Shown: positions 56 to 21,432 of the stretch, in pieces
How positions within the stretch are numbered: the first letter of the stretch is position 1
How the letters are laid out: the number at the start of each line of letters is the position of its first letter
From: an uncultured Candidatus Saccharibacteria bacterium
GTDB taxonomy: Bacteria > Patescibacteriota > Dojkabacteria > SC72
Length of the DNA stretch: 55,943 nt
Reading direction: 5' to 3'
Assembly: GCA_964536135.1 (NCBI GenBank)
Contig: CAZHVM010000003.1
Coordinates: 1 to 55,943 of the forward strand
Translations under genes and position numbers: made by a program
Notes under the pieces: model-generated
Seen by the model: only the letters and a program-made list of their open reading frames with translations
The model's database searches: none
Told to the model about the DNA's origin: nothing

Positions 56-57
56 GG

Positions 58-86: not shown

Positions 87-124
87 TATCAATCTATCGG
101 AAATAACTTTAAAAATAAAAAATC

Positions 125-1144: not shown

Positions 1145-1145
1145 G

Positions 1146-1802: not shown

Positions 1803-1819
1803 ATTTTAACAATTTTTAT

Positions 1820-2926: not shown

Positions 2927-2944
2927 AATCTAATAAAGAAAAGA

Positions 2945-4264
2945 ATGAGTAAAGAAACAGTAGCAATTTGTGGTTTAGGTTATGTTGGGTATCCAGTAGC
3001 AATGTTGTTTGCAGATGCAGGATTTGATGTTATTGGAGTAGATATCCTGGAAGACAGAGTAAAGAGATTAAATGAAGGAGAAAATCCTATCAAAGGGCAA
3101 GAACCAGGTTTGGATGATTTAGTAGAAGAAGTCTTCAAAAAGGGAAATTTTAGAGCAACTGCAGATATGAAAGAGTACAATCTTGCAGATTATATAATTG
3201 TTGCTGTTCAAACTCCTGTTGCAGAAGAAAACAAAAAACCAACCTATGAGAATTTAAAAGGCGCTCTTAGAGGTATTGGAAAGAATATGAAGAAAGGTGT
3301 TACGGTTATTATAGAATCTACAATAGCACCAGGAACTATGGAACATGTTGTTAAACCAATCTTGGAGGAAGAATCGGGTCTAAAAGCTGGAGAAGATTTC
3401 TTGTTAGCAAATTGTCCTGAGAGATTGATGCCAGGACATCTTTTGGAAAATATCCGATATTACAATAGAGTTATTGGAGGTTGGACTCCTGAATCTGCAA
3501 AAAAGGTAAAAGAATTATATAAGAATGTTGTTAAAGGAGAATTGCAAGAGACAGATTGTATAACCGCAGAGATAGTTAAAGCTGGAGAGAATACCTACCG
3601 TGATGTGCAGATAGCTTTTGCAAATGAGATGGCATTACTGTGTGAAGCATATGGAGCAAATGTCTGGAAAGTTCGAGAATTTATCAATAATTGTAAAAAA
3701 GTTACTGAAACCAGGCCAGAGGCATTAAGACAGATGCATTTCCCAGGTGCAGGAGTTGGAGGACATTGTATCCCTAAAGATTCATGGTTACTTATCCATG
3801 AAGTAAGAGATATTGTAAATCCAAAGCTTATTCCTACAGCAAGGTATATCAATGATTTTATGCCATTACATATGTTTGATCTTTTGAAAGATGGATTAAA
3901 AGAGGCAGGAAAGAAGCTTCGTGAGGTCAATGTTTTAGTTCTTGGATATGCTTACGATGCTAATTCTGACGATGACAGAAATACCCCAACTGTTCCATTT
4001 ATTGAGAAATTAAAAGAAAATAAAGTGAGATTTGAAATCCAGGATCCATTTATTAAGGATTATAAAGGTGATGTAAAAGAAATGTTGAAGGGTAAAGATG
4101 CTATTGTTCTTATGACAGGTCATGGTGAGTATAAAGAATTAGAATATAAAGAAATTGCAAAACTCATGAACAAGAATCCATTAATAATTGATGGAAGAAA
4201 TATCTTTGATAAAGAAGATGCAAGGAAGAATGGATTTGTATATAAAGGAGTTGGAAATATATAA
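2945..4264 (+). CDS. UDP-N-acetyl-hexosamine 6-dehydrogenase (nucleotide-sugar dehydrogenase, WbpA/WecC-like)
   Basis: GxGxxG (ICGLGYVGYP), a catalytic Cys motif (GGHCIPKD), and a typical UDPG_MGDP_dh length of 439 aa. Confidence 0.85.
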   Translation: MSKETVAICGLGYVGYPVAMLFADAGFDVIGVDILEDRVKRLNEGENPIKGQEPGLDDLVEEVFKKGNFRATADMKEYNLADYIIVAVQTPVAEENKKPTYENLKGALRGIGKNMKKGVTVIIESTIAPGTMEHVVKPILEEESGLKAGEDFLLANCPERLMPGHLLENIRYYNRVIGGWTPESAKKVKELYKNVVKGELQETDCITAEIVKAGENTYRDVQIAFANEMALLCEAYGANVWKVREFINNCKKVTETRPEALRQMHFPGAGVGGHCIPKDSWLLIHEVRDIVNPKLIPTARYINDFMPLHMFDLLKDGLKEAGKKLREVNVLVLGYAYDANSDDDRNTPTVPFIEKLKENKVRFEIQDPFIKDYKGDVKEMLKGKDAIVLMTGHGEYKELEYKEIAKLMNKNPLIIDGRNIFDKEDARKNGFVYKGVGNI

Positions 4265-4275
4265 AATTTCTCTTT

Positions 4276-6300
4276 ATGAAGGAATTAAAGAAAATCTATT
4301 TATTTGATTTGTTTGTTCTTGCGATTTCGGTATTTAGTTTGTTGAACATTATTCTTTTAGCTCTAGGTCTTTTTTATCCTTTATTATCATTAGGTATTAC
4401 AATCATTTTTTTGATTATTGGTCTTTTTGTATTTAGAATAAAAATAAATATTAAGGATAAAAGATTTGGGTTATTATTTTTGGTAGTTATAGCCTTAGCA
4501 TTAGCACTAAGAATTGCTCCCAACCTTTATCTAACAGGTGGACAAGATCAGGGAACTTATGTATCTCTATCAAAACAATATGAGATTAATCGTGGATTGT
4601 ATATTAAAGATGAATTAAGAGAATCTTTGTCAGAAAATTTAAAAGAGATTTATGATAAGGGAAATGTTTTTTTAGGATTGAAGTTTAAGGATAAAACAAC
4701 TTCAGAGTATACAATGCCTTTTTACCCTGTATTTCCATCTTGGATGGCAATCTTTGGTTCTACGATAGGATCAGACAGTAGAATTTATGCTCTTACATTA
4801 TTTAGTGTCTTGTCTATAGTTGGAGTATACCTCTTGGCATATGAAATATCTGGGAAGAATAAAAAGATTGGACTTTTATCTTCTTTTATAATTGCAATCA
4901 ATCCATTACACGTATATTTTTCAAGAGTTCCTCTTACAGAAGTAGTCTCATTAGCTTTTTTGTGTTTTGGCTTTTACTATTTAATTAAATTTTATAATGA
5001 TTATTTAAACAATAAAAAGAATATTTTATTCTTAATACTTTCCTTACTTTCTTTTACAACGCTGTTTTATACAAGGATGAGTGGAATTTTTTTCTTACCA
5101 ATAATAATATTAATACCATTACTAATTTTCTTATTTAGTAAGAATCTAAAACTTTTTAAATATTTTTTTTGGTATTCTGTCTCTTGGATTATTTCTCTTT
5201 TTTTATCGTATGAATTTTACAGGGCATTTATTCCAAACCTTTATCGACAAATAATCGGAAAAAGGTTGTTTAATTTAATAGGCACGGAGACTTTAATTTT
5301 ACTCGGGATTTTCTTGTGTGTTGTTTTGGTTGCAATCTTTTTTGTAAAAAAAATACGAGATAAATTGAACAGCATCTTGAAATTTTTTTATAAATATTTT
5401 TATACCATTGCGTTACTATTATTTTTCGGCTTAATTTTTTACGAATTATATTTTTATATTAAAGATACGTTTGTAAACAACAATTATTCTTTGTTGTCTG
5501 ATGAAAGTTTATCTTTATTTAAACAGCAAAGTTTCTTAGTGGGTTTGTTATATCTTTCTCCATTTGGTTTTGCAGTATTACCAATATCATTTGTATATCT
5601 AAAAAAGAAGAAGGATATAAAGATGGTGTTGTTAATATTGATGATATTAATCTTTTTAATATATTATTGGGGAGTATTAAGGCTTACTCAGTATCATTAT
5701 TACTTTGCCAGATACCAATTAAGTGAATTGATTCCTTTTTGTACAATTTTGATATCAATGTTTTTAATAGATATATGTAAAAACAAAGTAGGAAAAATAG
5801 TAAGCATAATATTAATCTCCTTGATGACAATATATTTTGGATATTTCTCTATACTACAATTGAATGATAATGAGGGTGCCCAAAAAGAGAATTTCACTGA
5901 AATACAGGAATTAGTTGGAGAGAAGGATTTGTTACTAGTCGCAAAAGATGAGTTTGGTTCTTTCAATCAGATTATTTTCCCAATTAAGTACTATGACAAT
6001 ATAAATACTTTCTCATTATCTTCGTTAGACTATATTGATAATCCTGAAATTAAAAGATTGACCGAAAAATATAACAATGTTTACCTATTATCTACAATGG
6101 GAACAATATCAAAAGAAAATATAAAACTTGTAAAGGAGATAGATTTTAAGCATAATTACTTTGTGCATTGTAATAGAAGTGAAGATGCATATTTTGAAAT
6201 GGATGGACATTCTAAAGATATTCCATTCTGTAAATATATAATAATACCAAATAGATACTATTATGGTACATATAAAATGTATTTATACGAGTGGGAATAA
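4276..6300 (+). CDS. polytopic membrane protein; GT-C-fold (ArnT/PMT_2-like) glycosyltransferase candidate
   Basis: 674 aa with many hydrophobic helices. An acidic/polar loop follows the first helices (NLYLTGGQDQGTYVS), and the C-terminal part of about 130 aa is non-hydrophobic. It lies next to a polyprenyl-phosphate sugar synthase. Confidence 0.5.
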   Translation: MKELKKIYLFDLFVLAISVFSLLNIILLALGLFYPLLSLGITIIFLIIGLFVFRIKINIKDKRFGLLFLVVIALALALRIAPNLYLTGGQDQGTYVSLSKQYEINRGLYIKDELRESLSENLKEIYDKGNVFLGLKFKDKTTSEYTMPFYPVFPSWMAIFGSTIGSDSRIYALTLFSVLSIVGVYLLAYEISGKNKKIGLLSSFIIAINPLHVYFSRVPLTEVVSLAFLCFGFYYLIKFYNDYLNNKKNILFLILSLLSFTTLFYTRMSGIFFLPIIILIPLLIFLFSKNLKLFKYFFWYSVSWIISLFLSYEFYRAFIPNLYRQIIGKRLFNLIGTETLILLGIFLCVVLVAIFFVKKIRDKLNSILKFFYKYFYTIALLLFFGLIFYELYFYIKDTFVNNNYSLLSDESLSLFKQQSFLVGLLYLSPFGFAVLPISFVYLKKKKDIKMVLLILMILIFLIYYWGVLRLTQYHYYFARYQLSELIPFCTILISMFLIDICKNKVGKIVSIILISLMTIYFGYFSILQLNDNEGAQKENFTEIQELVGEKDLLLVAKDEFGSFNQIIFPIKYYDNINTFSLSSLDYIDNPEIKRLTEKYNNVYLLSTMGTISKENIKLVKEIDFKHNYFVHCNRSEDAYFEMDGHSKDIPFCKYIIIPNRYYYGTYKMYLYEWE

Positions 6301-6326
6301 CGAATCTAAATTGATATAATGAATTC

Positions 6327-7415
6327 ATGTTAAAAAATAAAACTATTGCAGTAGTAGTTCCTGCGTACAATGAAGAAAAACAGATTGGAATGGTAATTGA
6401 ATCTATGCCAGAGTTTGTAGATAGAATAGTGATCGTAAATGACTGCTCCAAAGATAATACTGCTAAAGTTGTAAAAGAATATATTGCTAAAGATAACGCT
6501 AAGGTTATTGATTTAAATCACAGAGCTAAAGTTGTTCCAAATAGATACAATTATGCAGAGGTGGTAGTTGAAAAGATGGAAAAGGAAGAAAAAAGCTATT
6601 TTATTCCATCAGAAATAGAGAGTTCCACAAATTCTAGAATTATTTTAATAAATCATTTAGAGAATGGTTCTGTTGGTGCGGCAATGGCTACTGGATATAA
6701 ATGGTGTTTGGACAATAATATAGATTGCGCAGGTTTAATGGGTGGTGATGGTCAAATGGATCCTGAAGAGCTTGAAGCTATATGTCTGCCTGTTGTTGAG
6801 GGTGAAGTGGATTATGTGAAGGGTAATAGACTTAAGCATAGATCTGCAAGTTTAGTTATTCCGAAGGTAAGATTTTTTGGTAATTCAATTCTTTCTCTTC
6901 TTACAAAGATAGCTAGTGGTTATTGGCAGGTTTCAGATACACAGACTGGTTATACAGCAATATCTTTGGAGGCACTAAAGGGAATAAAGTTATATACAAT
7001 ATATAAATCTTATGGTTGTCCAAATGATATGTTGGTAAAATTGAATATTGCAAATTTTACAATTAAAGAAGTACCAATAAAGCCTGTTTATCATGTCGGG
7101 GAAGAATCCAAGATGAAAATATTTAAAGTAATTCCAAGAGTAAGTTGGTTGTTATTTAAGCTTTTCTGGCTTAGGTTGTATAAAAAATATTTGTTTAGAG
7201 ATTTTCATCCTTTATTTCTTCTATATCATTTATCTTTTACATTATTGATTATCAATATTCCTTACTCTATTGCTGTGTTTAACGATATATTTCTAGGAGA
7301 CAAGATATCTACTAATTCATTAATTGCATTCATGTTCCTTTCCATAACGGGATTTCAATCATTGTTTTTTGCTATGTGGATGGATATGATGGATAACCAG
7401 AGACTACAAAAATAA
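6327..7415 (+). CDS. GT2 polyprenyl-phosphate sugar synthase (GtrB/ArnC/Dpm1-like) with C-terminal TM helices
   Basis: Motifs VVVPAYNEEKQI...IVIVNDCSKDNT and GGDGQMDPEE, plus two C-terminal hydrophobic helices (FHPLFLLYHLSFTLLII; LIAFMFLSITGFQSLFFAMW). Confidence 0.75.
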   Translation: MLKNKTIAVVVPAYNEEKQIGMVIESMPEFVDRIVIVNDCSKDNTAKVVKEYIAKDNAKVIDLNHRAKVVPNRYNYAEVVVEKMEKEEKSYFIPSEIESSTNSRIILINHLENGSVGAAMATGYKWCLDNNIDCAGLMGGDGQMDPEELEAICLPVVEGEVDYVKGNRLKHRSASLVIPKVRFFGNSILSLLTKIASGYWQVSDTQTGYTAISLEALKGIKLYTIYKSYGCPNDMLVKLNIANFTIKEVPIKPVYHVGEESKMKIFKVIPRVSWLLFKLFWLRLYKKYLFRDFHPLFLLYHLSFTLLIINIPYSIAVFNDIFLGDKISTNSLIAFMFLSITGFQSLFFAMWMDMMDNQRLQK

Positions 7416-7434
7416 ATGAGACTTTTTCTAGCAG

Positions 7435-9297
7435 ATGAAATTAAATCTAAGTAAACAAGACAAATGGGCATTGATAATAATTCTTATTAATTTTGCCTTA
7501 CTATCTGTAATATCCTATTTTAGGTATGCAGTATTTGATGAGAAGATCTATCTTCATGAGACTATCATGATGAGTGAGATCTTAAAACAAGGTGAATGGA
7601 TTGGAAATTACGGAGTCGGTTTGCACGGTTTTCTATTCAAGCTACCAGTGGCCATTACTTTTATGATAACTGGTCCTTCTACATATGTAGCAACATTTTT
7701 TCATATTATCTTGGCTTCAGTAACATGTTGGATCTTCTATAGAATCTTGGCTTACAACTTGAATCTAAAAAAATGGTCAATCATTGGGCTTGTTTTGTTA
7801 ATCTCTAATTATAGTATGTTTAGTTGGTCATTAACTTTTCATCGAGAAGTACCTGTTCTGTTTGCTTTGATGTTATTTACCTACTTCATCATTAATCACA
7901 AAGAAAGGATATTCTTAAATGGTCTGTTACTTCTACTAATACTAGATGCAAAAGAGTATGTTTTTTTTATTGTTTTACCAGTTTTGTTAATTTATCTTTT
8001 TGTTTTAAATGATGGGGAAAAGAAATTAATTCAAAGAGTATTGTCTACAGTAAAATCATTACTGTTCTTACTGTTTCCATCCTTAGTATATCTTGTATTA
8101 ATGTTTACAACCTCGATTATACCGGTCAATATGTTTGATGCGTCTTTGCTTGGTCTAACAGAAGGACATTTCGGGTATCAAATAGCTCACACCTTACCTA
8201 GTAAAGCTCTAACAGATTTAAGTAGTTATTTAAATAACAATATTTTATACCGCGTAATAAGAAATGTTTCTACAGATATATGGGGAATTATTCAAGTTAT
8301 TCCTTTGTATGTTGCAAGTTATTTTGAAAAATTCCTATACATTTCAACATTCTCTTTCCAAGGGATATCTATATTTGTTTTAATACCATCCTTCATTTCA
8401 TCGTTGTATATCTTCAAGAAGTGGAGGAAAAGTAAAAAACAGTTGTTGTTCTTAGTGTTATTCTTTTGGGTGTTTATCATTGTTTATATGATTAGGTCGT
8501 CTCATCAGCGATATATATTACCTTTATTGCCTTTTTTAATAATCTTCTTAATAATTGGTTTAATAACAGTAACAAAAGAATGGTCAAAGTATCGAAAATT
8601 CTATTTATCAACAATTATAATCTCAGCTTTTGCTTTTTTAACGACAATCTTATATCAAGACTTAACTGATTTACGAGTGCTTTTTAATATTGCTTCAGGC
8701 TTTGTTATATTACTTTTGCTTGGAGGGCTATCTTATTTTAAGAGATATCGTAAAGTAATAATCAATCTAATAGTAATATTTATTATTGGTGCTTCTTTGT
8801 TTATCAATATTTATGCAATATCAACAAAAAATCAGATATATAAAAGTTTAACTTGGGGGATTAATGGAGAGGCTAACAGGATAGCGCAAATGCTTTCTCC
8901 TGAAGACGTTATATTTGTTGATTGTAAATCAGGGACTATATCAGAATTCACTTATCTTATAAATTTTTACAGGAAAAACAATCATCTACCAATAGAATGG
9001 CATTGGAAGTTGGATAAGAATTTAGTTAAAAGAAAGCTTGATGCAGTAGAAATTAGACCAAATTTTTATAATGAATTTGACGTAACAGATACGGTGGCCT
9101 TTAAATCATATATAATTGAAAATGATATAAACAAAATAGTCCTTCTGAAGTCTAAATTAGAAGATCAGAAATTTCCATTAGAGGATTATATTGAAGTATT
9201 TGAAAAAGAGAATTGGCTGAAATCAGAACAAACTCAGCAAATGAAAAATAAGACAGTATATATATTTGAGATAATAGATGAAAACATTAAAGAATAA
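7435..9297 (+). CDS. polytopic membrane protein, GT-C-like glycosyltransferase candidate (paralogue A of 16613-18517)
   Basis: 620 aa and multi-TM. It has an acidic first-loop motif (FDEKIYLHET), then WIGNYGVGLHGF, and a soluble C-terminal domain. It shows full-length similarity to the 634-aa ORF at 16613. Confidence 0.5.
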   Translation: MKLNLSKQDKWALIIILINFALLSVISYFRYAVFDEKIYLHETIMMSEILKQGEWIGNYGVGLHGFLFKLPVAITFMITGPSTYVATFFHIILASVTCWIFYRILAYNLNLKKWSIIGLVLLISNYSMFSWSLTFHREVPVLFALMLFTYFIINHKERIFLNGLLLLLILDAKEYVFFIVLPVLLIYLFVLNDGEKKLIQRVLSTVKSLLFLLFPSLVYLVLMFTTSIIPVNMFDASLLGLTEGHFGYQIAHTLPSKALTDLSSYLNNNILYRVIRNVSTDIWGIIQVIPLYVASYFEKFLYISTFSFQGISIFVLIPSFISSLYIFKKWRKSKKQLLFLVLFFWVFIIVYMIRSSHQRYILPLLPFLIIFLIIGLITVTKEWSKYRKFYLSTIIISAFAFLTTILYQDLTDLRVLFNIASGFVILLLLGGLSYFKRYRKVIINLIVIFIIGASLFINIYAISTKNQIYKSLTWGINGEANRIAQMLSPEDVIFVDCKSGTISEFTYLINFYRKNNHLPIEWHWKLDKNLVKRKLDAVEIRPNFYNEFDVTDTVAFKSYIIENDINKIVLLKSKLEDQKFPLEDYIEVFEKENWLKSEQTQQMKNKTVYIFEIIDENIKE

Positions 9298-10588
9298 AAA
9301 AATAGTTATAATTACTGGGTTACCTTTTCGAAAACAGGGGAACCAAAGCCTTTTAAGGTTTGTAAATATGTTTTTGGATCGTAAGATTAAGGTTACAATG
9401 TTCTCTGCAGGTTTTGATCCAAACGGAGAGAACGTTCTCTCTAACTCATTGTTTTCAGTTAAGAGAATCAAAAGTTTGGAGATAGCTTTAACAATATTTT
9501 TAAATCAACGGTTCTTTAAAGAAAAGATTTTGGATGAACATAAAAAAAACATATTTCAAGAGATAAAATCAGAGACAGTATTGCCACCTTATGGGGAATA
9601 CAACCTTTTTACATTATTGGGCAAATGGTCGAAATGGTTTTTGGTGATTTTGGATAATATTTTACTCTTCCTCTCTTTAAATATAAGATTCTCAGATATA
9701 ATCAAAAAAGCAGATATTATAATTGGATATGAAGACAACTTTACTCTTTGTGCAAAGTGGATTTCCTCTGTTTGGAGAAAAAAGTATATTAATAAATTTC
9801 AGGGAACGATTCTAAGGGCAACAAATCGAAACAAATCTTTAGCAATAAGGTATTTTCCGCATAACTATTTCAGTTTGAACAAATCTGATTTGTGTCTTAT
9901 GGTCAATGATGGAACAGATGGAGATTATTACGCTAAAGAAATAGGTTGTAAGGAAATCTTTTTCGAACCTCATGGGGTTCTTCGGTATGAACATAAGGGG
10001 GATGAATTTGAGACACTAAAAAAATTAAAGAAAACCGGAAAATTTATATTATTCAACAATGCGAGTGGAAGTACTTGGAAAAGGCCAGACAGAGCTATTA
10101 GAGCATTGCTTAAGATTAGAAAAGATATATTAAAAGATATTCTTTTGATAACTACCTATTATGGACCAAATCGGGCAGAGCTAATTGAATATACTAAAGC
10201 AAGTGGATTAGACAGGAATGTTCTCTTTGTTGAAAGGTTAGACAATATCCAGTGTAATTACATACTACAAAATTCTGATGTAGTAATTATGACAAATGAC
10301 ATTAGTAACCTGGGTAATCCTGTCTTGGAAGCTATCTTTTATAAAATTCCAATTATATCAATAAATGATGGAAGTTTAGATGGTTTTGTTACTGACAAGA
10401 AGGATTCTCTTCTTGTAGATCTTGATGTCGAGTTTGATGAAAATGTCGCCAATGCAATTGAAAAGCTGTATAAGGATAGAGAATATTATCAAAATTTGAA
10501 AAGAAATATGAATAAAAACAACCAAGTAAAAGAGCTGTCTGTGCAACAAGCAAGAGAGTTTAACCATATTCAGAATCTATTTGTATGA
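9278..10588 (+). CDS. divergent GT4/GT-B-fold glycosyltransferase
   Basis: The C-terminal half has the GT-B donor-binding pattern (SDVVIMTNDISNLGNPVLEAIFYKIPIISINDGSLDGFVTD). It overlaps its neighbours by 20 nt and 4 nt. Confidence 0.55.
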   Translation: MKTLKNKKIVIITGLPFRKQGNQSLLRFVNMFLDRKIKVTMFSAGFDPNGENVLSNSLFSVKRIKSLEIALTIFLNQRFFKEKILDEHKKNIFQEIKSETVLPPYGEYNLFTLLGKWSKWFLVILDNILLFLSLNIRFSDIIKKADIIIGYEDNFTLCAKWISSVWRKKYINKFQGTILRATNRNKSLAIRYFPHNYFSLNKSDLCLMVNDGTDGDYYAKEIGCKEIFFEPHGVLRYEHKGDEFETLKKLKKTGKFILFNNASGSTWKRPDRAIRALLKIRKDILKDILLITTYYGPNRAELIEYTKASGLDRNVLFVERLDNIQCNYILQNSDVVIMTNDISNLGNPVLEAIFYKIPIISINDGSLDGFVTDKKDSLLVDLDVEFDENVANAIEKLYKDREYYQNLKRNMNKNNQVKELSVQQAREFNHIQNLFV

Positions 10589-11901
10589 TAAATATCAAGG
10601 AATATATAAATGGGTTCTTTTCAAAAGGGACATTCAAAAAAAACATAGCAATTATGTTTTCAGGGACAGTAATATCTCAAGGTGTGTATCTACTTTTTTA
10701 TCCTATTTTGACAAGAATTTATCAGCCATCTGATTTCGGGCAGTATGCAATATTTATTGCTTTTTTATCAATTGGCTCTCTTATTGTTACTGGTCAGTAT
10801 GAATCAAGTATTTTATTGCCCAAAAAGGAAAAGAATGTTAAATATCTAATTTGGGGTGCAGTTTCATTGGCTTTGATTTTCTTTCTGATTGTTACGACAA
10901 TTTTGTTATTATCATCTCAATTCTTAGCAAGCAAAAATCTTTTTAATGGAAACTTAATTCTTATTATACTAGGAGTTTCTATATTCATTAATGCTTTGTA
11001 TCAGATTGGAACATATATGTCTCTAAGAAATAGGGGATTTAAAGCATTAACAATTATAAATATAATAAATGTTGGTTTTAGTATTTCATTTCAATACATT
11101 TTTTCTTTAACAGAGATTAAAAGCATAGGCTTGATTGTTGGATATATGATTGGAACACTTGTCGCGATGATTTGTCTGTTTATATACAATAGAAAAACAG
11201 TAAAACTGAATTTTAAAACACCAAATTTGCATTTAGGGATATTCAAAGTGTTAAAAAGATATAAAAACTTTCCCTTTGCTAATCTTCCAGCAATGCTTGT
11301 AAATCTTTTGGCAAATCAGATGCCTCAACTTTTGCTTAATACTTTTGGACAATCTATTGTAGGGTACTTTTCTATGTCTCAGAAAGTTCTTGGTAGTCCT
11401 GTAACACTTTTTTCTACATCGGTATCACATGTCTTCAAAGAAAGGGCTAGTAGTGATTACAGAAACAAGGGAAATTGTCGGCCAATTTTCGTTAAAACCT
11501 TTAAAAGTTTATTCTTAATATCTATTGTTCCATTTGTTTTAATCTTTATTTTTGCTCCAACAATTGTTCCAATAATTTTTGGAACAGAATGGGTAGAGGC
11601 TGGAGTATATATTAGAGCTTTGACTCTAATGTATTTTTTCAAATTCACAGTTAGTCCGTTGTCTTATGTTATAGTTATTGCCGAGAAACAAAAGCTTAAT
11701 TTATTACTCCAGACAACACTTTTAGTATTAACAGCGAGCTCTCTCTATTACGGGATATCTCAAAACAATCCTTTAACTGCTGTTATCCTTTTTTCTATCT
11801 CATACTCTGCGGTTTATATCCTTTTCTTGTTTATCTCTTATAAATTGTCAAAGAATCAGAGACATAACGCTAAGATGATATCAGAGTATAAAGAACAGTA
11901 A
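10585..11901 (+). CDS. Wzx-type oligosaccharide flippase (MOP superfamily), paralogue A
   Basis: 438 aa, about 12 hydrophobic helices, and a Polysacc_synt-like N-terminus (NIAIMFSGTVISQGVYLLFYPILTRIYQPSDFG). Confidence 0.75.
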   Translation: MINIKEYINGFFSKGTFKKNIAIMFSGTVISQGVYLLFYPILTRIYQPSDFGQYAIFIAFLSIGSLIVTGQYESSILLPKKEKNVKYLIWGAVSLALIFFLIVTTILLLSSQFLASKNLFNGNLILIILGVSIFINALYQIGTYMSLRNRGFKALTIINIINVGFSISFQYIFSLTEIKSIGLIVGYMIGTLVAMICLFIYNRKTVKLNFKTPNLHLGIFKVLKRYKNFPFANLPAMLVNLLANQMPQLLLNTFGQSIVGYFSMSQKVLGSPVTLFSTSVSHVFKERASSDYRNKGNCRPIFVKTFKSLFLISIVPFVLIFIFAPTIVPIIFGTEWVEAGVYIRALTLMYFFKFTVSPLSYVIVIAEKQKLNLLLQTTLLVLTASSLYYGISQNNPLTAVILFSISYSAVYILFLFISYKLSKNQRHNAKMISEYKEQ

Positions 11902-11981
11902 TTTAATTGATTTATAGGCTATTTTTAGATATATTTTACTTGAATCGCTAGTATTTTAGTTTATTGATAATAATATTCTCG

Positions 11982-13103
11982 ATGAAAAAAATAACAGTAC
12001 TACTTTTCAACGATTTTGTTAACGATAATAGAGTATTAAAGGAGTGTAAAAGTCTGCAAGATAATGGTTATGAAGTGCAATTATATGCAACACATTTTGA
12101 CAACAAATTACCCAAAGAAGAAGTTGTAAAGGGTTTTAAAGTAACCAGAATTAATGTTGGAAGATTTGAGTTTCTGCTGTTTAATCTCCCCCTGTTTTGG
12201 ATTAAGACATTTTTTCAATGTAGAAAAGACGAAATCCTCCACTGTAATGATTTGTATGCTTTACCCCCAGCATATTTCTTAAAGAAATTTGTTAATAAAA
12301 GGATCAAGATAGTATACGATTGTCATGAGCACGAAACAGAAGCAAAAATTTATATTGGGAAACCAATTATTAAAAAATTGGCACAGATATTTGAAAAGAC
12401 AATGATAAAATCTGCGAATAAAGTTATAACTGTAAGTAATTCAATTGCAGATGACTACGTTAGCATGTACGGTATTCAAAAGCCAGCATTAGTGCTGAAT
12501 AGTCCTGTATTTCAAACTGTTCAAAAACAGGATCATTTTCGAGAAGACCTTGGTATCTCTAAGGAAAAAACTATATTTCTTTTTCAGGGTAAATATCTCC
12601 CTGGGAGAGGATTAGATAATCTTATTGATATCTTTAGAAAACTTGAACCAATTAACAAAGATATAGTCTTGGTATTTATGATATATGGTGAAGGTTCTGA
12701 AAAGGTAAAAGAACAGATAAAAAATGACAAGAACATATATTGGCATGAAAAAGTTTCAGTCATGGAATATATGAATTATGTCGCATCTGCAGACTGGGGG
12801 ATATATTTGATGGAAAATATTTGCAAGAACCATGACTATGCTTTACCTAATAAAATATTTGATTATGTTCTAGCTGGTTTACCCGTTGTTACCTCAAATT
12901 TAAAAGAGATGTCAAGATTTGTTAAAGATAATGGAGTGGGTTATGTTATAAATCCAGAAGATCAAGAAATGGTGGTTACTCTATTGCAAAAAATAAAAAA
13001 GGAGACCCAAAAACAATTTGTTCCAAACCTGATGAAGACTTCAGTGAAATATTGTTGGGAAGAACAGGAAAAAGTGTTAATTAAATTATATAACTCATTA
13101 TAG
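11982..13103 (+). CDS. GT4-family glycosyltransferase
   Basis: GT-B pattern (LPNKIFDYVLAGLPVVTSNLKEMSRFVKDNGVGYVI). The ATG at 11982 (MKKITVLLF) is preferred over the TTG at 11964. Confidence 0.7.
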   Translation: MKKITVLLFNDFVNDNRVLKECKSLQDNGYEVQLYATHFDNKLPKEEVVKGFKVTRINVGRFEFLLFNLPLFWIKTFFQCRKDEILHCNDLYALPPAYFLKKFVNKRIKIVYDCHEHETEAKIYIGKPIIKKLAQIFEKTMIKSANKVITVSNSIADDYVSMYGIQKPALVLNSPVFQTVQKQDHFREDLGISKEKTIFLFQGKYLPGRGLDNLIDIFRKLEPINKDIVLVFMIYGEGSEKVKEQIKNDKNIYWHEKVSVMEYMNYVASADWGIYLMENICKNHDYALPNKIFDYVLAGLPVVTSNLKEMSRFVKDNGVGYVINPEDQEMVVTLLQKIKKETQKQFVPNLMKTSVKYCWEEQEKVLIKLYNSL

Positions 13104-13105
13104 AT

Positions 13106-14179
13106 ATGAAAGTCGTATCTTTGATTGGTGCAAGGCCTCAATATATAAAAGAGGCGGTACTAAATAAGTCTTTTAAAGAGACTGGCATTGAAGAAATAAT
13201 TGTTAACTCAGGCCAGCACTATGATTATAATATGGCGGATATATTTTTTGAGAAGCTTGGCATAAAAGCTCCAGATTATAATTTGAAAGTGGGTTCTGGA
13301 TTACATGGTGAGATGACTGCAAAAATAATGGTCGAATTTGAGAAATTAATGATGGAGATAAATCCAGATATGGTATTAGTCTATGGTGATACAAATACAA
13401 CTCTTGCAGGTGCTATTGTTGCAGCAAAACTTAAGCTGCCTCTGGCTCATGTAGAAGCGGGGGTAAGAATGTTACCAAAGGATATGCCAGAAGAAATAAA
13501 CAGAACTTTAACAGACAGAGTATCCAATTTATTATTCTGTCCTTCGGAATTGGCTGTTAAAAATCTTACAAAAGAGGGTATTGTAGCTGGTGTCCATTTT
13601 ACAGGAGATGTCACATATGATTTATATCTTCAGAGCAAAGATCATTTCGATTATTCTTTATATGAAGGTATGAAATTAGTTGATGGAGAATATGTCTTAG
13701 TTACATTACATAGAGATTACAATGTAGACGACAAAGAGAGATTTGGGAAAATCTTAAAAGCTTTGTCTGAATTAGCAAAGGAGAAACGGATAATTTTCCC
13801 TATTCACCCAAGAAGTAGAAAAAGAATTCAGGAGTTTGGATATGAAGATTACATAAAAAACATAGATATATTAGATCCAATAGATTATCTAAGTCTAATG
13901 GGATTGTTAGAACATTGTGAAAGTGTCATCACAGATAGTGGAGGATTACAGAAAGAATCTTATTATGCTCAGAAACCAGGATATTTATTGATGCCAGATC
14001 CAGCTTGGCATGAGTTGGTAGAATACAAGATGAATCATCTGTGTGAACCAGAAGATTTGTTGGCAAAGATGAAGGAAGAAAGAAACTATGAATATATACC
14101 CCACTTATATGGTGAAGGTGATGCCGGAGAGAGAATAGTTAATATCATAGAAGAATATTTAAATGACAACAAAAAATAA
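13106..14179 (+). CDS. wecB: UDP-N-acetylglucosamine 2-epimerase (non-hydrolysing), WecB/WbpI family
   Basis: Motifs MKVVSLIGARPQYIK, VLVYGDTNTTLAGAIVAAKLKLPLAHVEAG and ITDSGGLQKE. Confidence 0.88.
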   Translation: MKVVSLIGARPQYIKEAVLNKSFKETGIEEIIVNSGQHYDYNMADIFFEKLGIKAPDYNLKVGSGLHGEMTAKIMVEFEKLMMEINPDMVLVYGDTNTTLAGAIVAAKLKLPLAHVEAGVRMLPKDMPEEINRTLTDRVSNLLFCPSELAVKNLTKEGIVAGVHFTGDVTYDLYLQSKDHFDYSLYEGMKLVDGEYVLVTLHRDYNVDDKERFGKILKALSELAKEKRIIFPIHPRSRKRIQEFGYEDYIKNIDILDPIDYLSLMGLLEHCESVITDSGGLQKESYYAQKPGYLLMPDPAWHELVEYKMNHLCEPEDLLAKMKEERNYEYIPHLYGEGDAGERIVNIIEEYLNDNKK

Positions 14180-15344
14180 AGATATCCTTTATTTGGTACA
14201 TTCTTATCATTCATTCCAAAAAGACTCAGTAGAAGTATTGGCTAAAAACTTTAGAAATGTATACGTAATTGTTAGATATAAACCATTGGCTGAGATATCG
14301 AATTTGTTAAAAATAAAAAAACTTTATAACCATAGAAAATCCTTTGTGATACAAGATAGTAACAAACCAGATAATGTTCATATATATACAGCAGCTCTAT
14401 GGTATCTCCCTTTTAAATTTTTTTATGATTTATTAGGAGATTATCACTTTAGGGTTGTGGACAAGATAATTAATATGAAGAATATTAAATTTGATTTAAT
14501 ACATTCTCATTTTACATGGACTGCAGGATATGTTGGAGCAAAATTAAAAGAGAAGTACCACAAGCCATTTGTTTTAACAGTACATGAGGACAATACATGG
14601 TTTGATGAAGAATTAAGAAGCAATAACGAAAAGAAATACAATACTTGGAGAAATGCTGATTCCTTGATTCGTGTAAACAAGGAGACGGTAAAAGATCTGA
14701 AGGTATTTAATAAGAACACAGTATATCTATCGAATGGTTTTAATCAGGGTATCTTTATTAATGGAGATAAAACAGAAGCCAGACAATTGCTAGGAATAGA
14801 TTTGAAAAAAAAGATTTTATTATCAATTGGTCATTTAGAAGAATATAAAGGTCAGATTTACTTAATAAGAGCAATAAATATTTTGGTAAATGACTTGGGG
14901 ATAAAGGATTTAAAGCTTTTTATCATAGGTGAAGGTAGTCAAAGAAAAAACTTAGAAAACGAGATACAAAATTTGAAGATTGAAGATTATGTCGAATTGT
15001 TGGGCAGTAAACTTCATAAAGATATTCCCATATGGATGAATTCTTGCGATGTTTTTGTTCTTCCGAGTCTGTCTGAGAGTTTTGGTATTGTTCAGTTAGA
15101 AGCTTTCGCATGTGGAAAGCCTGTGGTTGCTACGAAGAACGATGGAAGTAGGCAGGTTATAACATCCGACAAATTAGGTCTTTTATGTAATATCGGAGAT
15201 CCAGGGAGTCTGGCCGAAACCATAGCAAAAGCTTTAGAAAAGAAATGGAATGAAAAAGAGATAATAACATATGCTAAGAGTTTTACTTGGGATAATGTTC
15301 TAATGAAAGTGCAAGAAATTTATAATGATTTATTAAAGAAATGA
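14163..15344 (+). CDS. GT4-family glycosyltransferase
   Basis: Motif PSLSESFGIVQLEAFACGKPVVATKNDG and a typical C-terminal FTWDNVLMKVQEIY. Confidence 0.85.
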   Translation: MTTKNKDILYLVHSYHSFQKDSVEVLAKNFRNVYVIVRYKPLAEISNLLKIKKLYNHRKSFVIQDSNKPDNVHIYTAALWYLPFKFFYDLLGDYHFRVVDKIINMKNIKFDLIHSHFTWTAGYVGAKLKEKYHKPFVLTVHEDNTWFDEELRSNNEKKYNTWRNADSLIRVNKETVKDLKVFNKNTVYLSNGFNQGIFINGDKTEARQLLGIDLKKKILLSIGHLEEYKGQIYLIRAINILVNDLGIKDLKLFIIGEGSQRKNLENEIQNLKIEDYVELLGSKLHKDIPIWMNSCDVFVLPSLSESFGIVQLEAFACGKPVVATKNDGSRQVITSDKLGLLCNIGDPGSLAETIAKALEKKWNEKEIITYAKSFTWDNVLMKVQEIYNDLLKK

Positions 15345-15345
15345 C

Positions 15346-16650
15346 ATGAAGGAATTTATAAAGAAAGTGATTGGAAAGTATATAGGAAGAAGTATGTATA
15401 AGAGGAATATTCTAGTTATGGTCGGCGGAAGAATAATAGCTCAGGCTGTTCCAATCCTTCTGACACCTTTGTTGACAAGAATGTATACTCCTGCAGAATT
15501 TGGAATGTTTGGTGTGTATGCATCTATAATTGCTCTAATAGCTATGGTTTCCAATGGAAGATACAGTTTGTCAATTATTCTCCCAAAAGACGAAGATAAA
15601 GCCAAAAAACTGTTTTTATTATCTAGTTTATTGACAATTATAATAACCTTAATATTTGCGCTATTTATAGCTATATTGGGAGGAAAGATTTTTGGTTTTC
15701 TTGAGATTCCAATTTTTGAGAGATATCTACTCCTTTTGATTCTAAATATATTATTCATAGGATTATATGAGCCATTATATTATTATGCTCTCAGAACAAA
15801 GCATTACAAAATTCTAACAACAAATATAATTATACAGGCACTAATCTTGATCTCAACAAGAATTTTGCTTGGGTATTTGGGATATACAGAGATTGGGTTA
15901 ATTCTTTCCTATTTATTGGGTTATTCTTTTAGTTACATCTTATTGGTTTTAAGATTGAAAATCCCTGTATCTCCATTAATTAAGGATTTTAAAATTGTGG
16001 AATATATAAAACTGATAAAAGAATATTCAAATTTCCCGAGATTTTCTTTATTAGCTGATACTTTAAGTCTGCTTGCTACAAACTCTCCCAATATATTGTT
16101 AAATAAGGTCTTTGGTAGTGTTGCAACGGGATATTATTCTATGTCTGACAAGATTTTGGGTTCTCCTATTTGGTTTGTTACTTCTTCTGTCGGAGATGTA
16201 TTTAAACAGGAGGCTTCAGAGCAATTACGGACTAGAGATTCTTGCTTTGATGTCTTTGTTAAAACAACTAAAACATTATTTCTTCTGGCAATAGGTCCCT
16301 TCCTTATTATCTTTCTAGTGTCACCGTATATAATTCCGTTCATTTTAGGTCCTAATTGGGAACCAGTAGGGGATATTATAAGAATTTTTTCAATAATGTA
16401 TTTCCTTAGGTTCATTATTAGTCCTGTGAGTTATGTAATATACATAGTAGGTAAACAAAAATACAACATATTTTTTCAGAGTATAAATTTAATAACAACG
16501 ATTATTCCCTTCTTCTTGGGTATTTATTTTAAAGATTTGTATTTGTGTTTAATATCATTTTCAATCTTAACTTCTATTTCCTATATCATTACATTCCTGT
16601 ATTCGTATAAGTTTGCAAAAGAATCAAAATATGACAGAAATGAAAGATAA
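15346..16650 (+). CDS. Wzx-type oligosaccharide flippase (MOP superfamily), paralogue B
   Basis: 434 aa and multi-TM. It aligns by eye with 10585-11901 (NILVMVGGRIIAQAVPILLTPLLTRMYTPAEFG against NIAIMFSGTVISQGVYLLFYPILTRIYQPSDFG). Confidence 0.75.
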   Translation: MKEFIKKVIGKYIGRSMYKRNILVMVGGRIIAQAVPILLTPLLTRMYTPAEFGMFGVYASIIALIAMVSNGRYSLSIILPKDEDKAKKLFLLSSLLTIIITLIFALFIAILGGKIFGFLEIPIFERYLLLLILNILFIGLYEPLYYYALRTKHYKILTTNIIIQALILISTRILLGYLGYTEIGLILSYLLGYSFSYILLVLRLKIPVSPLIKDFKIVEYIKLIKEYSNFPRFSLLADTLSLLATNSPNILLNKVFGSVATGYYSMSDKILGSPIWFVTSSVGDVFKQEASEQLRTRDSCFDVFVKTTKTLFLLAIGPFLIIFLVSPYIIPFILGPNWEPVGDIIRIFSIMYFLRFIISPVSYVIYIVGKQKYNIFFQSINLITTIIPFFLGIYFKDLYLCLISFSILTSISYIITFLYSYKFAKESKYDRNER

Positions 16651-18517
16651 AAAATTTATTTATCAAATAAACGAGTTTTTACAAAGGCCTAAGGTTATTA
16701 AATGGTTACCGATAATTTTTTTCTTCTCTTGGTTTTTTCTTTTTTTAATATTATCTATCTTTCGTGATTCAAGATTGGATGAGAATATCTACTTTGGAGA
16801 GACAACCGTTATAACGGATCTTCTTCGGCGTGGAATCTGGATTGGTAATTATGGTGTAGGACTTCATGGGTTTATTAGTAAATTTGTAGTTGGAGTTATT
16901 TTCCTATTATCGGGCCCTTCTATCTTTTTAGCTACATTGTTTAATATAAGCTTGGGTGTATTGAGTGGAATTGTTTTTTATTTTATTTTAAAAAAACATT
17001 TCAAATTTTCTCTCTTATATTCTCTTCTTGGAGTCACTCTCCTTTTTTGTAATTTTCAATTACTAACTTATATTCCAACATATTATAGAGATATAGGAGC
17101 ATTACTATTTGTTTTATTAATATTAGAATCCATTCTAGGGGAAAGAAGTAAATGGTTGACCGGAGTTTATCTACTTCTTTTATTGGATTCGAAGGAACAT
17201 GTCTTTTATACTTTATTACCTGCTATTTTAATATGGATAATTATTAAGGCATATTTAGAGAATAAGGGTAAAATTATTCAAATACTTAAAGAAGTGTTGC
17301 TTAATTGCCTGAAAATGTTTTTACCATCTTTACTCTTTTTGCTTTTGATGTTTTCAACCTCTGTTATTCCCTTAAATATTTATGATGCAAAAATCTTGGG
17401 CCTAATTAAAGGTGGCTTTGTAAGAATGTTGTCTGATTTTGATACAAACTTAGCTACATATAATAGAGATATTGTCGAAAATGAGAATATTGCAAAAGCT
17501 GTTCCCCTTATCAAAGTTGAAAACCAAATGGAGTCTTTGCAAGCGTATTTTATTAACGGATTTAACACATTCCTTTCATATTTAGGCAAGATTTTCTATC
17601 CCAGAACTTTTTCTTTTCTAACCATTCCTTTTGTATTGTTGATACCCAGTATCTTAACAATGTTTAATTGTCTAAAGATTTGGTTTAAAAAGATGGATTC
17701 TAAAAATCTTTCTTTACCAATCATATTGATAGTTTATATTCTAATTTATATCTTCCATGCCTCAATCGGCAGATATTTAATACCAATATTACCAGTAGTA
17801 ATAATATTCTTTTTAATATTTTTGAAGAATTTCAAAAAAGAGAAGAAGTACTTGGCCATAATGCTTGTAACGCTAGCTTTTAGTATTGTAGGCCTCTTCT
17901 TTGAGTATAGTTATCTTTTAATCAAAATTGGATTTGTGGCTGGAATATTTATAACGTTTTTATTTATGTATTTTATAAAAGACCTCAACAGATTAAGGTA
18001 TAAATATCTGTTGATAATTATTCTATCAGCTTTTACAGCAGGTACTTCACTTTTGGTCTCTTATAAAAATGGTCCAATAGGATCTTATTTAAAGTTTGGA
18101 TATTGCAGAGAATCAGAAAAAATAATATCTCTAGTTAAGGAAGATGACAGGATATGGATTAATGATCTGGGATGGGATAGATTACCTTTTATATTACGAT
18201 CGGAGAACATGCAAAATCCAGAATGGAGATGGAGGCTGAAGCCTTGGGTCCCCAAAAAATCATTATTAAAAAACGAGAGGGATTTAAACACGTATAATTT
18301 CAACTGGAGTAGCGGGGCAAACTTTAAAGAGAAAATATCTGAAGAGAGTATAAATAAAATTGTTTTTATTAAACTTTCCCAAGATGTAAATTCAGAAGGA
18401 CTTCTTTTACAAGACAGATTAAATGTTTTATTGGAATCAGATTGGATAAAATTGGAAGAAAGTATTGTTATGAAAAACAAGGTTGTCTATATATTTAATG
18501 TTGAAGATAATAAATAA
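16613..18517 (+). CDS. polytopic membrane protein, GT-C-like glycosyltransferase candidate (paralogue B of 7435-9297)
   Basis: Motifs LDENIYFGET, WIGNYGVGLHGF, LLLLDSKEHVF and FSTSVIPLNIYDA are all shared with paralogue A. Start uncertain (ATG at 16613, 16631 or 16640); it overlaps the Wzx gene end. Confidence 0.5.
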   Translation: MQKNQNMTEMKDKKFIYQINEFLQRPKVIKWLPIIFFFSWFFLFLILSIFRDSRLDENIYFGETTVITDLLRRGIWIGNYGVGLHGFISKFVVGVIFLLSGPSIFLATLFNISLGVLSGIVFYFILKKHFKFSLLYSLLGVTLLFCNFQLLTYIPTYYRDIGALLFVLLILESILGERSKWLTGVYLLLLLDSKEHVFYTLLPAILIWIIIKAYLENKGKIIQILKEVLLNCLKMFLPSLLFLLLMFSTSVIPLNIYDAKILGLIKGGFVRMLSDFDTNLATYNRDIVENENIAKAVPLIKVENQMESLQAYFINGFNTFLSYLGKIFYPRTFSFLTIPFVLLIPSILTMFNCLKIWFKKMDSKNLSLPIILIVYILIYIFHASIGRYLIPILPVVIIFFLIFLKNFKKEKKYLAIMLVTLAFSIVGLFFEYSYLLIKIGFVAGIFITFLFMYFIKDLNRLRYKYLLIIILSAFTAGTSLLVSYKNGPIGSYLKFGYCRESEKIISLVKEDDRIWINDLGWDRLPFILRSENMQNPEWRWRLKPWVPKKSLLKNERDLNTYNFNWSSGANFKEKISEESINKIVFIKLSQDVNSEGLLLQDRLNVLLESDWIKLEESIVMKNKVVYIFNVEDNK

Positions 18518-18521
18518 AAAT

Positions 18522-19469
18522 ATGATTCCAAACCTAATATTAGAACTTTCTCTGAACTCTAAAGGTATCTTGAGAAAGATATTCTCTTTTTTAAGAAAAA
18601 TAACAATATATATATGGAATGACCCAGAGGTTAGATTTCACTTAAACAACAGAGCTATATATTTACCTCTATCACATAACTTACCTTTTTATTTAAGAGA
18701 TCATACCCTGTATGACCAACTTCTTGGTAGATTTAGTGAATATCTTCACTCTAAGAAAGGATCCGTTTATGGGGTAGATATTGGTGCAAATGTTGGAGAT
18801 ACAATTTTGTCAATGTATAGAAATAAGAAAGACTTATTTCTGGCGGTAGAACCTGAACCAAAATTTCTAAAATATCTTGAAAAGAACATGTTGGGTTATA
18901 AGAATGTTTTGATTGACAACACAATATGTTCGGCAGAAGAGATGTCGGGGGATTTCTCTTTTAGAGAACATGGTGGGACTGCCTCTATCGAAAGAAATAG
19001 TAGTTATATTAGTAATACTAAAATTGACAGTTTAGACAATATAATAAAAAAATATCCCCAAATCAGTTGTGTGGATATTTTCAAAATAGATACAGATGGA
19101 CACGATTTTGATGTTATAAGAGGTTCTCAAAACTTTGTAAAGCAGTATAAACCAAGTATCTTGTTTGAATGCGATTATTTTTCTAATAAGAATTATTTAA
19201 CAGAATTGTTGTCAACCTTAGAATTCTTCTTATCAAATGGATATTCAAAATGTTTGGTATATGATAACTTAGGGTATTTAATAGGGAAATATAGTCTTGA
19301 AGATACTGATGGATTTAAAAAACTTTTGCAGTATCAACTTATGAAGAAATCTTACTATTACGATATACTGGTTCTTCCGGATATGGTTTTTAAAGGATTC
19401 TACGATGAAGAGAAAAAATTCTATGGAGATTTTTTAAAAAAAGAAGGAAAAAAATCTTTTTTTGAATAG
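18522..19469 (+). CDS. FkbM-family SAM-dependent methyltransferase
   Basis: Motifs GVDIGANVGDT and FKIDTDGHDFDVIRGS. The ATG at 18522 avoids overlap with the previous gene (track start 18483). Confidence 0.75.
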   Translation: MIPNLILELSLNSKGILRKIFSFLRKITIYIWNDPEVRFHLNNRAIYLPLSHNLPFYLRDHTLYDQLLGRFSEYLHSKKGSVYGVDIGANVGDTILSMYRNKKDLFLAVEPEPKFLKYLEKNMLGYKNVLIDNTICSAEEMSGDFSFREHGGTASIERNSSYISNTKIDSLDNIIKKYPQISCVDIFKIDTDGHDFDVIRGSQNFVKQYKPSILFECDYFSNKNYLTELLSTLEFFLSNGYSKCLVYDNLGYLIGKYSLEDTDGFKKLLQYQLMKKSYYYDILVLPDMVFKGFYDEEKKFYGDFLKKEGKKSFFE

Positions 19470-19498
19470 TTTCATAATTTTATGATTAAGGGTTAAAA

Positions 19499-20602: not shown

Positions 20603-20619
20603 TAAGTATTTCACAAAGA

Positions 20620-21423: not shown

Positions 21424-21432
21424 GTACTTTTT

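Follow-up and report, generated by a model that had tools for sequence, protein, structure and literature searches.

We analysed 55.9 kb of DNA (the window, meaning this whole stretch) from a tiny-genome groundwater bacterium of the Dojkabacteria (Patescibacteria). The window carries an island of glycan genes in which three large polytopic proteins, here named A, B and C, are interleaved with a family 2 glycosyltransferase (GT2a), several GT4 glycosyltransferases and two flippases, Wzx1 and Wzx2. A preliminary description of this DNA had assigned the glycosyltransferase C (GT-C) architecture to the three proteins and suggested that they might form an oligosaccharyltransferase (OST)-type system. 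The GT-C fold, the lack of any likeness to Wzy or WaaL, the role of the GT2 and the lack of polymerase, ligase and exporter genes were borne out, whereas the OST-type idea was not. For the window's own proteins, A and B/C are GT-C families that escape all curated models. The logic of the island is that of the known Gram-positive scheme of streptococci and lactococci, not that of a new protein-glycosylation machine. We lean towards reading the island as a Dojkabacteria surface-glycan locus, in which a lipid-phosphate sugar made by GT2a would be flipped and used outside the membrane by A, with B and C adding or joining further parts.

The names of homologues assign the window to Candidatus Dojkabacteria (WS6). 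All open reading frames (ORFs) of the preliminary description were found at their coordinates. From 125 to 22224 every gene lies on the + strand, with tiny gaps or overlaps, and scans of 1-20000 for promoters and terminators gave site numbers no higher than shuffle expectation, which is consistent with one long co-directional array. A, B, C and the two Wzx proteins, which are 35% identical to each other, were the only proteins of the window with at least seven transmembrane segments. No ORF in the 55.9 kb matched the Wzy_C, O-antigen ligase, Wzz, ABC-2 or LCP families, so that the reported lack of Wzy, WaaL, Wzz and an ABC exporter extends beyond the island, and GtrA, DUF2304, TagO and rhamnan genes were also missing from the window. 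The genes that had been listed were all present, including the two flippases and the interleaved GT4 genes, but the DUF456 gene and a module with a WbaP/PglC-type phosphoglycosyltransferase had been overlooked (Table 1).

Table 1. Genes of the island and of the downstream glycosyltransferase module, with the basis of each assignment
Feature	Position	Strand	Basis
GFO/IDH/MocA oxidoreductase, WbpB-like UDP-sugar 3-dehydrogenase	125..1144	+	Pfam GFO_IDH_MocA
Hexapeptide-repeat N-acetyltransferase, WbpD-like	1098..1802	+	Pfam Hexapep 9e-33; position syntenic in relatives
DegT/WbpE-like sugar aminotransferase	1820..2926	+	Pfam DegT_DnrJ_EryC1 4e-125
UDP-N-acetyl-hexosamine 6-dehydrogenase, WbpA/WecC-like	2945..4264	+	Pfam UDPG_MGDP_dh N, central and C domains
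GT-C protein A	4276..6300	+	AlphaFold2 model, Foldseek, family relations
GT2a, predicted polyprenyl-phosphate sugar synthase (Dpm1/ArnC/GtrB/AglJ class)	6327..7415	+	Pfam Glycos_transf_2, family profile
GT-C protein B, ArnT-like fold	7435..9297	+	AlphaFold2 model, Foldseek
GT4 glycosyltransferase	9278..10588	+	Pfam Glycos_transf_1
Wzx1, MOP-family flippase	10585..11901	+	Pfam Polysacc_synt_3 4e-24; NCBIfam MOP flippase/TuaB
GT4 glycosyltransferase	11964..13103	+	Pfam Glyco_transf_4 and Glycos_transf_1
Non-hydrolysing UDP-GlcNAc 2-epimerase, WecB/WbpI-like	13106..14179	+	Pfam Epimerase_2 7e-87; NCBIfam wecB 264 bits, over cutoff
GT4 glycosyltransferase	14163..15344	+	Pfam Glycos_transf_1 2e-42
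Wzx2, MOP-family flippase, Wzx1 paralogue	15346..16650	+	Pfam Polysacc_synt_3
GT-C protein C, B paralogue	16613..18517	+	32% identity to B
FkbM-type methyltransferase	18483..19469	+	Pfam Methyltransf_21
GT4 glycosyltransferase	19499..20602	+	Pfam Glycos_transf_1
GT2b, membrane-anchored WcaE-like GT2, probably elongating	20620..21423	+	Pfam Glycos_transf_2; NCBIfam
S-adenosylmethionine (SAM) methyltransferase	21433..22224	+	Pfam Methyltransf_23
FkbM-type methyltransferase	22262..23023	-	Pfam Methyltransf_21
GT4 glycosyltransferase	23105..24286	+	Pfam Glycos_transf_1
DUF3800 gene	24343..24993	+	Between last GT4 and DUF456
DUF456 small polytopic membrane protein, distal island end	25105..25593	+	Pfam DUF456 3.7e-30
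Two GT4 glycosyltransferases, upstream of phosphoglycosyltransferase	31217..33503	+	Pfam Glycos_transf_1 for both
Small polyprenyl-phosphate phosphoglycosyltransferase, WbaP C-terminal/PglC type	33490..34134	+	Pfam Bac_transf 1.5e-56

The GT-C proteins and their two families

Alignments of 41 sequences for the A family (A1) and of 51 sequences for the B/C family (A2) were fed to AlphaFold2. The models of A and B had predicted local distance difference test scores (pLDDT) of 90.8 and 90.7, respectively, and a predicted template modelling score (pTM) of 0.91 each. Both show a helical membrane core and a C-terminal alpha/beta domain (residues ~535-674 in A and ~485-620 in B), in agreement with the soluble C-terminal domain described before. 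When the models were compared with PDB entries by Foldseek, every significant match was a GT-C_A enzyme with a probability of 1.0, and WaaL, RodA and FtsW were not among the top 50 matches listed for A and B. The match list of B was headed by ArnT (5f15; E 2e-7, TM-scores 0.49/0.54), which was followed by PglB, ALG12, ALG9, DPY19, Pmt4 and AftA/B. That of A began with yeast and human STT3, AglB and PglB (E 1e-8 to 1e-5, TM-score ~0.43), and Pmt4, ArnT, DPY19 and ALG9 ranked lower. The predicted structures confirmed A and B as GT-C_A-fold enzymes; C aligned with B over its full length (E 1e-65), and this homology confirmed its assignment as a putative GT-C enzyme.

The acidic motif noted earlier in the first outside loop was recognised in all three proteins, the orientation being inferred from the positive-inside distribution. 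In A, which has ~12 hydrophobic segments, the motif is G88-G89-Q90-D91, which is invariant in the family and lies in the first large outside loop after the third helix. In B and C, which are 620-634 aa long and have ~10 and ~13 hydrophobic segments, respectively, it is D35-E36, located directly after the first transmembrane helix, conserved in at least 90% of the members and read as 'LDENIY' in C. The B/C family possesses in addition a conserved 'PEWxWxL' motif, which is distinct from WWDYG. Neither WWD nor WWDYG was found in the sequences of A, B and C, and none of the three has a MIR domain.

The three proteins had been treated as one set. They share the fold, but only B and C are paralogues, and A belongs to an unrelated family: BLASTP detected nothing between A and B, and a profile-profile comparison of the two families by hhalign reached a probability of 22% over ~84 columns. 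Since this probability is so low, A and B/C are treated as separate families.

A, B and C had no match in Pfam at E <= 10, including the PMT_2, ArnT, YfhO and STT3 models against which the preliminary description had proposed to compare them. Searches of NCBIfam and of PDB sequences gave nothing usable apart from a single weak match of A to LA_3751/3752 (3e-4), and PDB profile searches with A1 and A2 were empty. Among the relatives, 20 of the 41 in the A family matched PMT_2 (PF13231; best 1.2e-9) and 11 matched PMT (PF02366), and 6 of the 51 in the B/C family matched PMT_2; in CAZy, enzymes of this PMT/ArnT-like type are GT39 and GT83. STT3 was also not detected in these 41 and 51 relatives (E <= 0.01). 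Neither the three proteins nor the relatives matched the Wzy_C or O-antigen ligase models of Pfam, which stand for the GT-C_B enzymes of CAZy GT119-121 and GT125-129. An exhaustive HMMER profile search with B/C retrieved 296 proteins at E <= 1e-3 among 1.84 billion representatives; with so few matches, the family is small, sharply bounded and separate from the huge PMT_2/ArnT families. In the loci collected here, B/C was met only in bacteria of the Candidate Phyla Radiation (CPR).

Some B/C-family members are much longer (800-2300 aa; P0212, P0222, P0193, P0241 and others). In these, the profile matched two stretches with a split near position ~287, in an outside loop, which indicates a very large inserted extracytoplasmic domain. 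In many B/C loci, a conserved soluble protein of ~346 aa is encoded between the GT2 and the C-type GT-C gene (for example, L098:3449-4492 and L163:8997-10037). This protein had no Pfam match, and the window does not encode it.

Partners of A and of B/C

The distribution of family A was determined by a motif-guided scan of 185,579 species genomes. Its carriers extend far beyond Patescibacteria and include Desulfacinum infernum DSM 9756 and other Thermodesulfobacteriota, Geobacteraceae, Chlorobiaceae, Spirochaetota, Campylobacterota, several Gammaproteobacteria, Vicinamibacteria and Bdellovibrionota. In 25 of 64 loci, the next gene after A, in the same orientation, encodes a GT2 of 312-364 aa with two transmembrane helices; loci of Desulfacinum, Chlorobiaceae, Spirochaetota, Campylobacterota and Gammaproteobacteria are among these. 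A GT2 was found no more than three genes away from A in 24/53 loci and a Wzx in 2/53. Rhodanobacter, Frateuria and Dokdonella carry family A alone.

GT2a, the partner in the window, consists of a GT-A domain and two C-terminal transmembrane helices (306-350). Searched alone against PDB, it was too divergent to reach the relevant entries and matched just the N-terminal GT-A part of the 'Glycosyl transferase' chain 5tze, which we take to be TarS. These entries were reached with a family profile (A3) built from 22 GT2 sequences encoded by genes following A-family genes. This profile matched Pyrococcus DPMS (5mlz, 1.7e-25), three ArnC entries over nearly the full length (~1e-15) and GtrB (3e-10). 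In NCBIfam, all 22 members matched AglJ and PpgS, 20 matched dolichyl-phosphate hexose transferase, 13 ArnC and 12 PgfS. These matches indicate that GT2a is a predicted polyprenyl-monophosphate sugar synthase, as its earlier description as GtrB/ArnC/Dpm1-like implied. The other GT2 of the island, GT2b, also has two C-terminal transmembrane helices and was considered as a second GtrB-like synthase. This was rejected, as its best NCBIfam match was WcaE (6.5e-26), and GT2b looks like an ordinary elongating enzyme.

The pairing of A bears directly on the OST-type reading. According to this reading, Wzx flips an undecaprenyl-diphosphate oligosaccharide begun by the phosphoglycosyltransferase, and A or B/C transfers it en bloc to peptidoglycan or to proteins, for example those of an S-layer or elsewhere on the surface, which would replace Wzy, WaaL and LCP. 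In line with this, Wzy, WaaL and LCP are missing from the window, whereas it does encode a phosphoglycosyltransferase and two Wzx proteins, and C overlaps Wzx2. Large surface-type proteins flank the island in the window (34735-36861) and in the related locus L002, and OSTs head the Foldseek list of A. A further resembles the GT66 enzymes STT3, AglB and PglB in its GT-C_A fold and C-terminal soluble domain. Unlike them, A has neither WWDYG nor an STT3 signal, both of which are missing from B and C as well, and its partner gene encodes a predicted lipid-monophosphate sugar synthase and not a lipid-diphosphate-oligosaccharide pathway. By TM-score, A is no closer to OSTs (0.40-0.45) than to ArnT, ALG9 or DPY19 (0.40-0.42). 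OST structures and ArnT are routine top structural matches of ordinary Gram-positive decorating GT-Cs, which transfer monosaccharides (PMC8035078), and in CAZy all GT-C_A families but GT66, the OSTs, use lipid-phosphate-monosaccharide donors (PMC10920833). The association of A with an ArnC/GtrB-like GT2 across phyla (25/64), and almost never with Wzx (2/53), argues for lipid-monophosphate sugar donors rather than OST chemistry. We thus regard the OST-type reading as very improbable.

The neighbourhood of B/C is different in composition. Within three genes of B/C-type genes in metagenome loci, Wzx was found in 11/28 and GT2 in 12/28 cases. The order B-GT4-Wzx recurs in relatives, several loci have one or two C-type genes after Wzx, and tandem C-C pairs occur in 18 of 73 loci. 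In the window, the 3' end of Wzx2 overlaps the start of C, which is likely the ATG at 16631 or 16640, and the same overlap is seen in relatives. Other neighbours are GtrA with a GT2 (L163), a GT2 with the GacJ-family protein DUF2304 (L104, L164) and an ABC-2 permease after a C-C pair (L123). Several neighbours were inspected as Wzy-like candidates and rejected: the 484-aa gene after Wzx in L163 encodes a soluble enzyme, the 508-aa neighbour in L164 is another Wzx, and in L105 and L147 the polytopic protein encoded ahead of C is a Polysacc_synt flippase. A 559-aa neighbour of GtrA and GT2 in L163 matched none of the profiles and is, by its architecture, a further GT-C candidate.

These associations raise the question of whether B and/or C are repeat-unit polymerases or ligases, analogous to Wzy, WpsI or WpsJ, that join Wzx-flipped units while just A and GT2a decorate. 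The overlapping Wzx-C genes, the B-GT4-Wzx order and the C-C pairs are in line with such a role, and WpsI, described as a GT-C-fold polymerase that uses a C55-P-oligosaccharide, provides a precedent (PMC9574508). The Wzy proteins of CAZy clan GT-C3 (GT122-124), which have a long N-terminal loop with conserved Arg, Arg, Asp and His, are without a solved structure (PMC10920833), so that a Foldseek search of PDB cannot exclude kinship with them. Both A and B/C have conserved Arg, Asp and His residues, and these are not specific to that clan. On the other hand, the nearest structure to B is ArnT, a monosaccharide transferase, and B/C-type genes lie beside GtrB-like GT2, GtrA and DUF2304 as often as beside Wzx. 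A length of 620-634 aa with a C-terminal soluble domain is also unlike a typical Wzy. On balance, this role for B and C appears unlikely. We consider it still less likely that B/C, and possibly A, found new GT-C families that do the jobs of Wzy, WaaL and LCP in CPR bacteria by polymerising Wzx-flipped lipid-linked oligosaccharides or by attaching them en bloc to the wall or to surface or S-layer proteins. If true, this would reveal a Wzy-independent, OST-like finishing step for a bacterial heteroglycan.

A proposed pathway and its precedents

On the basis of the fold, the family relations and the synteny, we infer the donors, the acceptors and the order of action in the surface-glycan locus as follows. 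WbpA, WbpB, WbpE, WbpD and WbpI form a known route to UDP-2,3-diacetamido-2,3-dideoxy-hexuronic acid, and the corresponding set of genes in the window (125-4264 and 13106-14179) would make the same sugar nucleotide. Among these genes, only the dehydrogenase subfamily and wecB models of NCBIfam were matched over their cutoffs (the product of 2945..4264 scored 385.8 bits as an NDP-sugar dehydrogenase). The 125..1144 product matched the archaeal UDP-GlcNAc 3-dehydrogenase model under the cutoff (2.3e-31), and its gene is kept upstream of A in relatives. GT2a would then load a sugar onto undecaprenyl phosphate, as suggested by its profile homology to DPMS, ArnC and GtrB. The resulting lipid-monophosphate sugar may be flipped unchanged or, as in Lactococcus Wps, once GT4 enzymes have extended it; the flippase could be Wzx1 or Wzx2, by analogy with GacK and WpsG, or another protein such as DUF456. 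Outside the membrane, A, the partner of a GT2 across phyla, would move the GT2a-derived sugar to an acceptor. The ArnT-like paralogues B and C, the latter probably translationally coupled to Wzx2, may add more residues or units, or join or polymerise them. Possible acceptors are a glycolipid, a surface protein and a wall glycopolymer whose synthesis starts with the phosphoglycosyltransferase at 33490.

A similar arrangement is known in Streptococcus pyogenes, in which the group A carbohydrate receives its GlcNAc side chain from GacI/J/K/L (PMC9574508; PMC8035078). There, a GT-A enzyme makes the C55-P-sugar, the Wzx-type GacK flips it and the GT-C protein GacL transfers the sugar outside, without Wzy (PMC9574508). 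The island likewise has a predicted C55-P-sugar GT-A enzyme, Wzx and GT-C proteins, and its relatives carry the GacJ-family DUF2304 beside a GT2. Unlike in GacIJKL, three GT-Cs and two Wzx proteins are encoded here, and the window lacks DUF2304 as well as a rhamnan or ABC-exporter pathway for the acceptor. The likeness to GacL is one of pathway layout; A, B and C match no Pfam or NCBIfam family. In the 'dual-chain assembly' model of the PSP pathway of Lactococcus lactis, a glycan is begun on C55-P by the GT2 initiator WpsA/B, lengthened by WpsC-F and flipped by the Wzx protein WpsG, after which the GT-C protein WpsI polymerises it and a second GT-C, WpsJ, attaches it to rhamnan (PMC9574508; PMC8035078). 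The window shows a matching order of GT2, GT4 and Wzx genes plus several GT-C genes; unlike in L. lactis, acceptor rhamnan genes, a WpsH/Wzz-like protein and LCP are missing from it, and the sugar chemistry is another one, with diacetamido-uronic acid genes. In view of these two Gram-positive precedents, there is nothing unusual about Wzx genes unaccompanied by Wzy. The premise that known systems combine one GT2, one flippase and one GT-C fails with the two GT-Cs of Wps, and the premise that Wzx needs Wzy and a ligase fails with GacK/GacL and Wps, which work otherwise (PMC9574508; PMC8035078).

The adjacent genes for a predicted polyprenyl-phosphate sugar synthase and a GT-C protein also recall ArnC/ArnT, GtrA/B/C and CsbB/GtcA/YfhO. 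The logic of the A-GT2 cassette is that of ArnC/ArnT, GtrB/GtrC and CsdA/CsdB, in which a lipid-monophosphate sugar is made, flipped and used outside by a GT-C. ArnT is the closest structure to B, and the GT2 family profile covers the full length of ArnC; a GtrA and a GT2 lie beside C-type genes in the relative L163, whereas the window itself has no GtrA. Since Patescibacteria lack an outer membrane, lipid A is ruled out as the acceptor, unlike in ArnC/ArnT. In protein O-mannosylation (Ppm1/Pmt of Actinobacteria, Dpm1/PMT of eukaryotes) and in the PgfS/PgfM1/PgfM2 system of S. mutans, a Dpm1-like GT2 works with one or two GT-Cs. The matches of A relatives to PMT and PMT_2 and of partner GT2s (12/22) to PgfS resemble these systems. 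Unlike them, A, B and C are without MIR and below the PMT thresholds, and their genes lie inside a large heteroglycan cluster.

Several observations weigh against the proposed surface-glycan pathway. An acceptor-polymer pathway with an ABC exporter and an LCP ligase is missing from the window, unlike in the streptococcal and lactococcal models. The phosphoglycosyltransferase, which lies ~8 kb off, could feed Wzx with lipid-diphosphate-oligosaccharides instead. A, B and C are below the Pfam thresholds of PMT_2, PMT, ArnT and YfhO, and the link of A and B/C to PMT_2 comes via their relatives alone. Furthermore, in ~60% of the family-A loci, A and GT2 are not adjacent.

In another explanation, the pathway is a conventional Wzx/Wzy one whose polymerase, chain-length regulator and LCP ligase have their genes in other parts of the genome; A, B and C would then just add side branches like Gtr, YfhO or GacL. 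The visible portion of the genome is 56 kb, and one relative has an ABC-2 permease after a C-C pair. In Bacillus anthracis, moreover, the secondary cell wall polysaccharide (SCWP) depends on both a Wzx/Wzy pathway and a multi-component glycosylation system (PMC8035078). Polymerase genes are, however, normally found within such clusters, two candidates inspected among the unassigned polytopic or hydrophobic ORFs of relatives proved to be a Wzx and a soluble enzyme, and the 559-aa neighbour in L163 is GT-C-like. Three GT-Cs to one GtrB-class GT2 would also be an odd ratio for pure decorators. We hold this explanation to be quite improbable.

Experiments have so far revealed very little of how the ultra-small Patescibacteria make the cell surface on which their episymbiotic life depends, and literature searches returned no description of this cluster from Dojkabacteria or other Patescibacteria. 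The island would represent Gram-positive-style glycosylation outside the membrane in Patescibacteria, with two GT-C families outside the curated models. A-GT2 is a conserved two-gene cassette over many phyla and is present in cultured species, so that its chemistry is directly testable. B/C is a small Wzx-associated family, seen here only in CPR loci, and a candidate for a non-Wzy finishing of Wzx-exported glycans. Should the ordinary reading hold, the island would allow better annotation and would serve as a warning that "GT-C with OST-like fold and no Wzy" does not equal protein glycosylation.

Chromosomal setting and neighbouring genes

The gene cluster is conserved in contigs of other Dojkabacteria, which keep the co-directional order MocA, hexapeptide transferase, DegT, (dehydrogenase), A, GT2, B, GT4, Wzx, GT4, epimerase and GT4. 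In one Dojkabacteria lineage (L003/L004, 13197-15170), the B slot after A-GT2 is filled by a gene for an AsnB-like amidotransferase (GATase_7, 657 aa), which hints at amidated uronic acids in that glycan. The island end is also alike: DUF456 is followed after a few genes by an M23 peptidase (L005) or directly by SecA (L163), as in the window. This common end suggests a variable island in a fixed chromosomal slot. The DUF456 gene itself recurs at the distal end of homologous islands (L005, L163 and 11/32 long B/C loci), and its product could be a lipid-sugar flippase or an accessory protein. The G+C content ranges from 27 to 38% across the window and has its minimum over the island (27-32% at 4001-22000 versus 34-38% in the flanks), which fits a variable, possibly exchanged, glycan locus.

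The DUF3800 gene, whose 3' end is overlapped by an Rfam DUF3800-IX RNA match (53 bits; 24966-25038, - strand), seems to have been inserted into the island. Downstream of DUF456, the M23 peptidase and SecA genes precede the second module, in which two GT4 genes are followed by the phosphoglycosyltransferase gene (31217-34134). The product of the latter matched EPS_sugtrans (9e-69) and WbaP (1e-62) in NCBIfam and, to judge from these matches, could start a lipid-diphosphate-linked glycan.

Two putative surface proteins are encoded further downstream, one of 708 aa with Big_1, CarboxypepD_reg and SdrD_B domains (34735-36861) and one of 1010 aa with hydrophobic segments at both ends and no Pfam match (47285-50317). 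In L002, a 2013-aa Laminin_G_3 protein adjoins the island. These large proteins are possible glycosylation targets. The window also encodes an ELP3-like protein on the - strand (39284-40915), with radical SAM and Radical_SAM_C domains and a weak GNAT match, in this bacterial genome.

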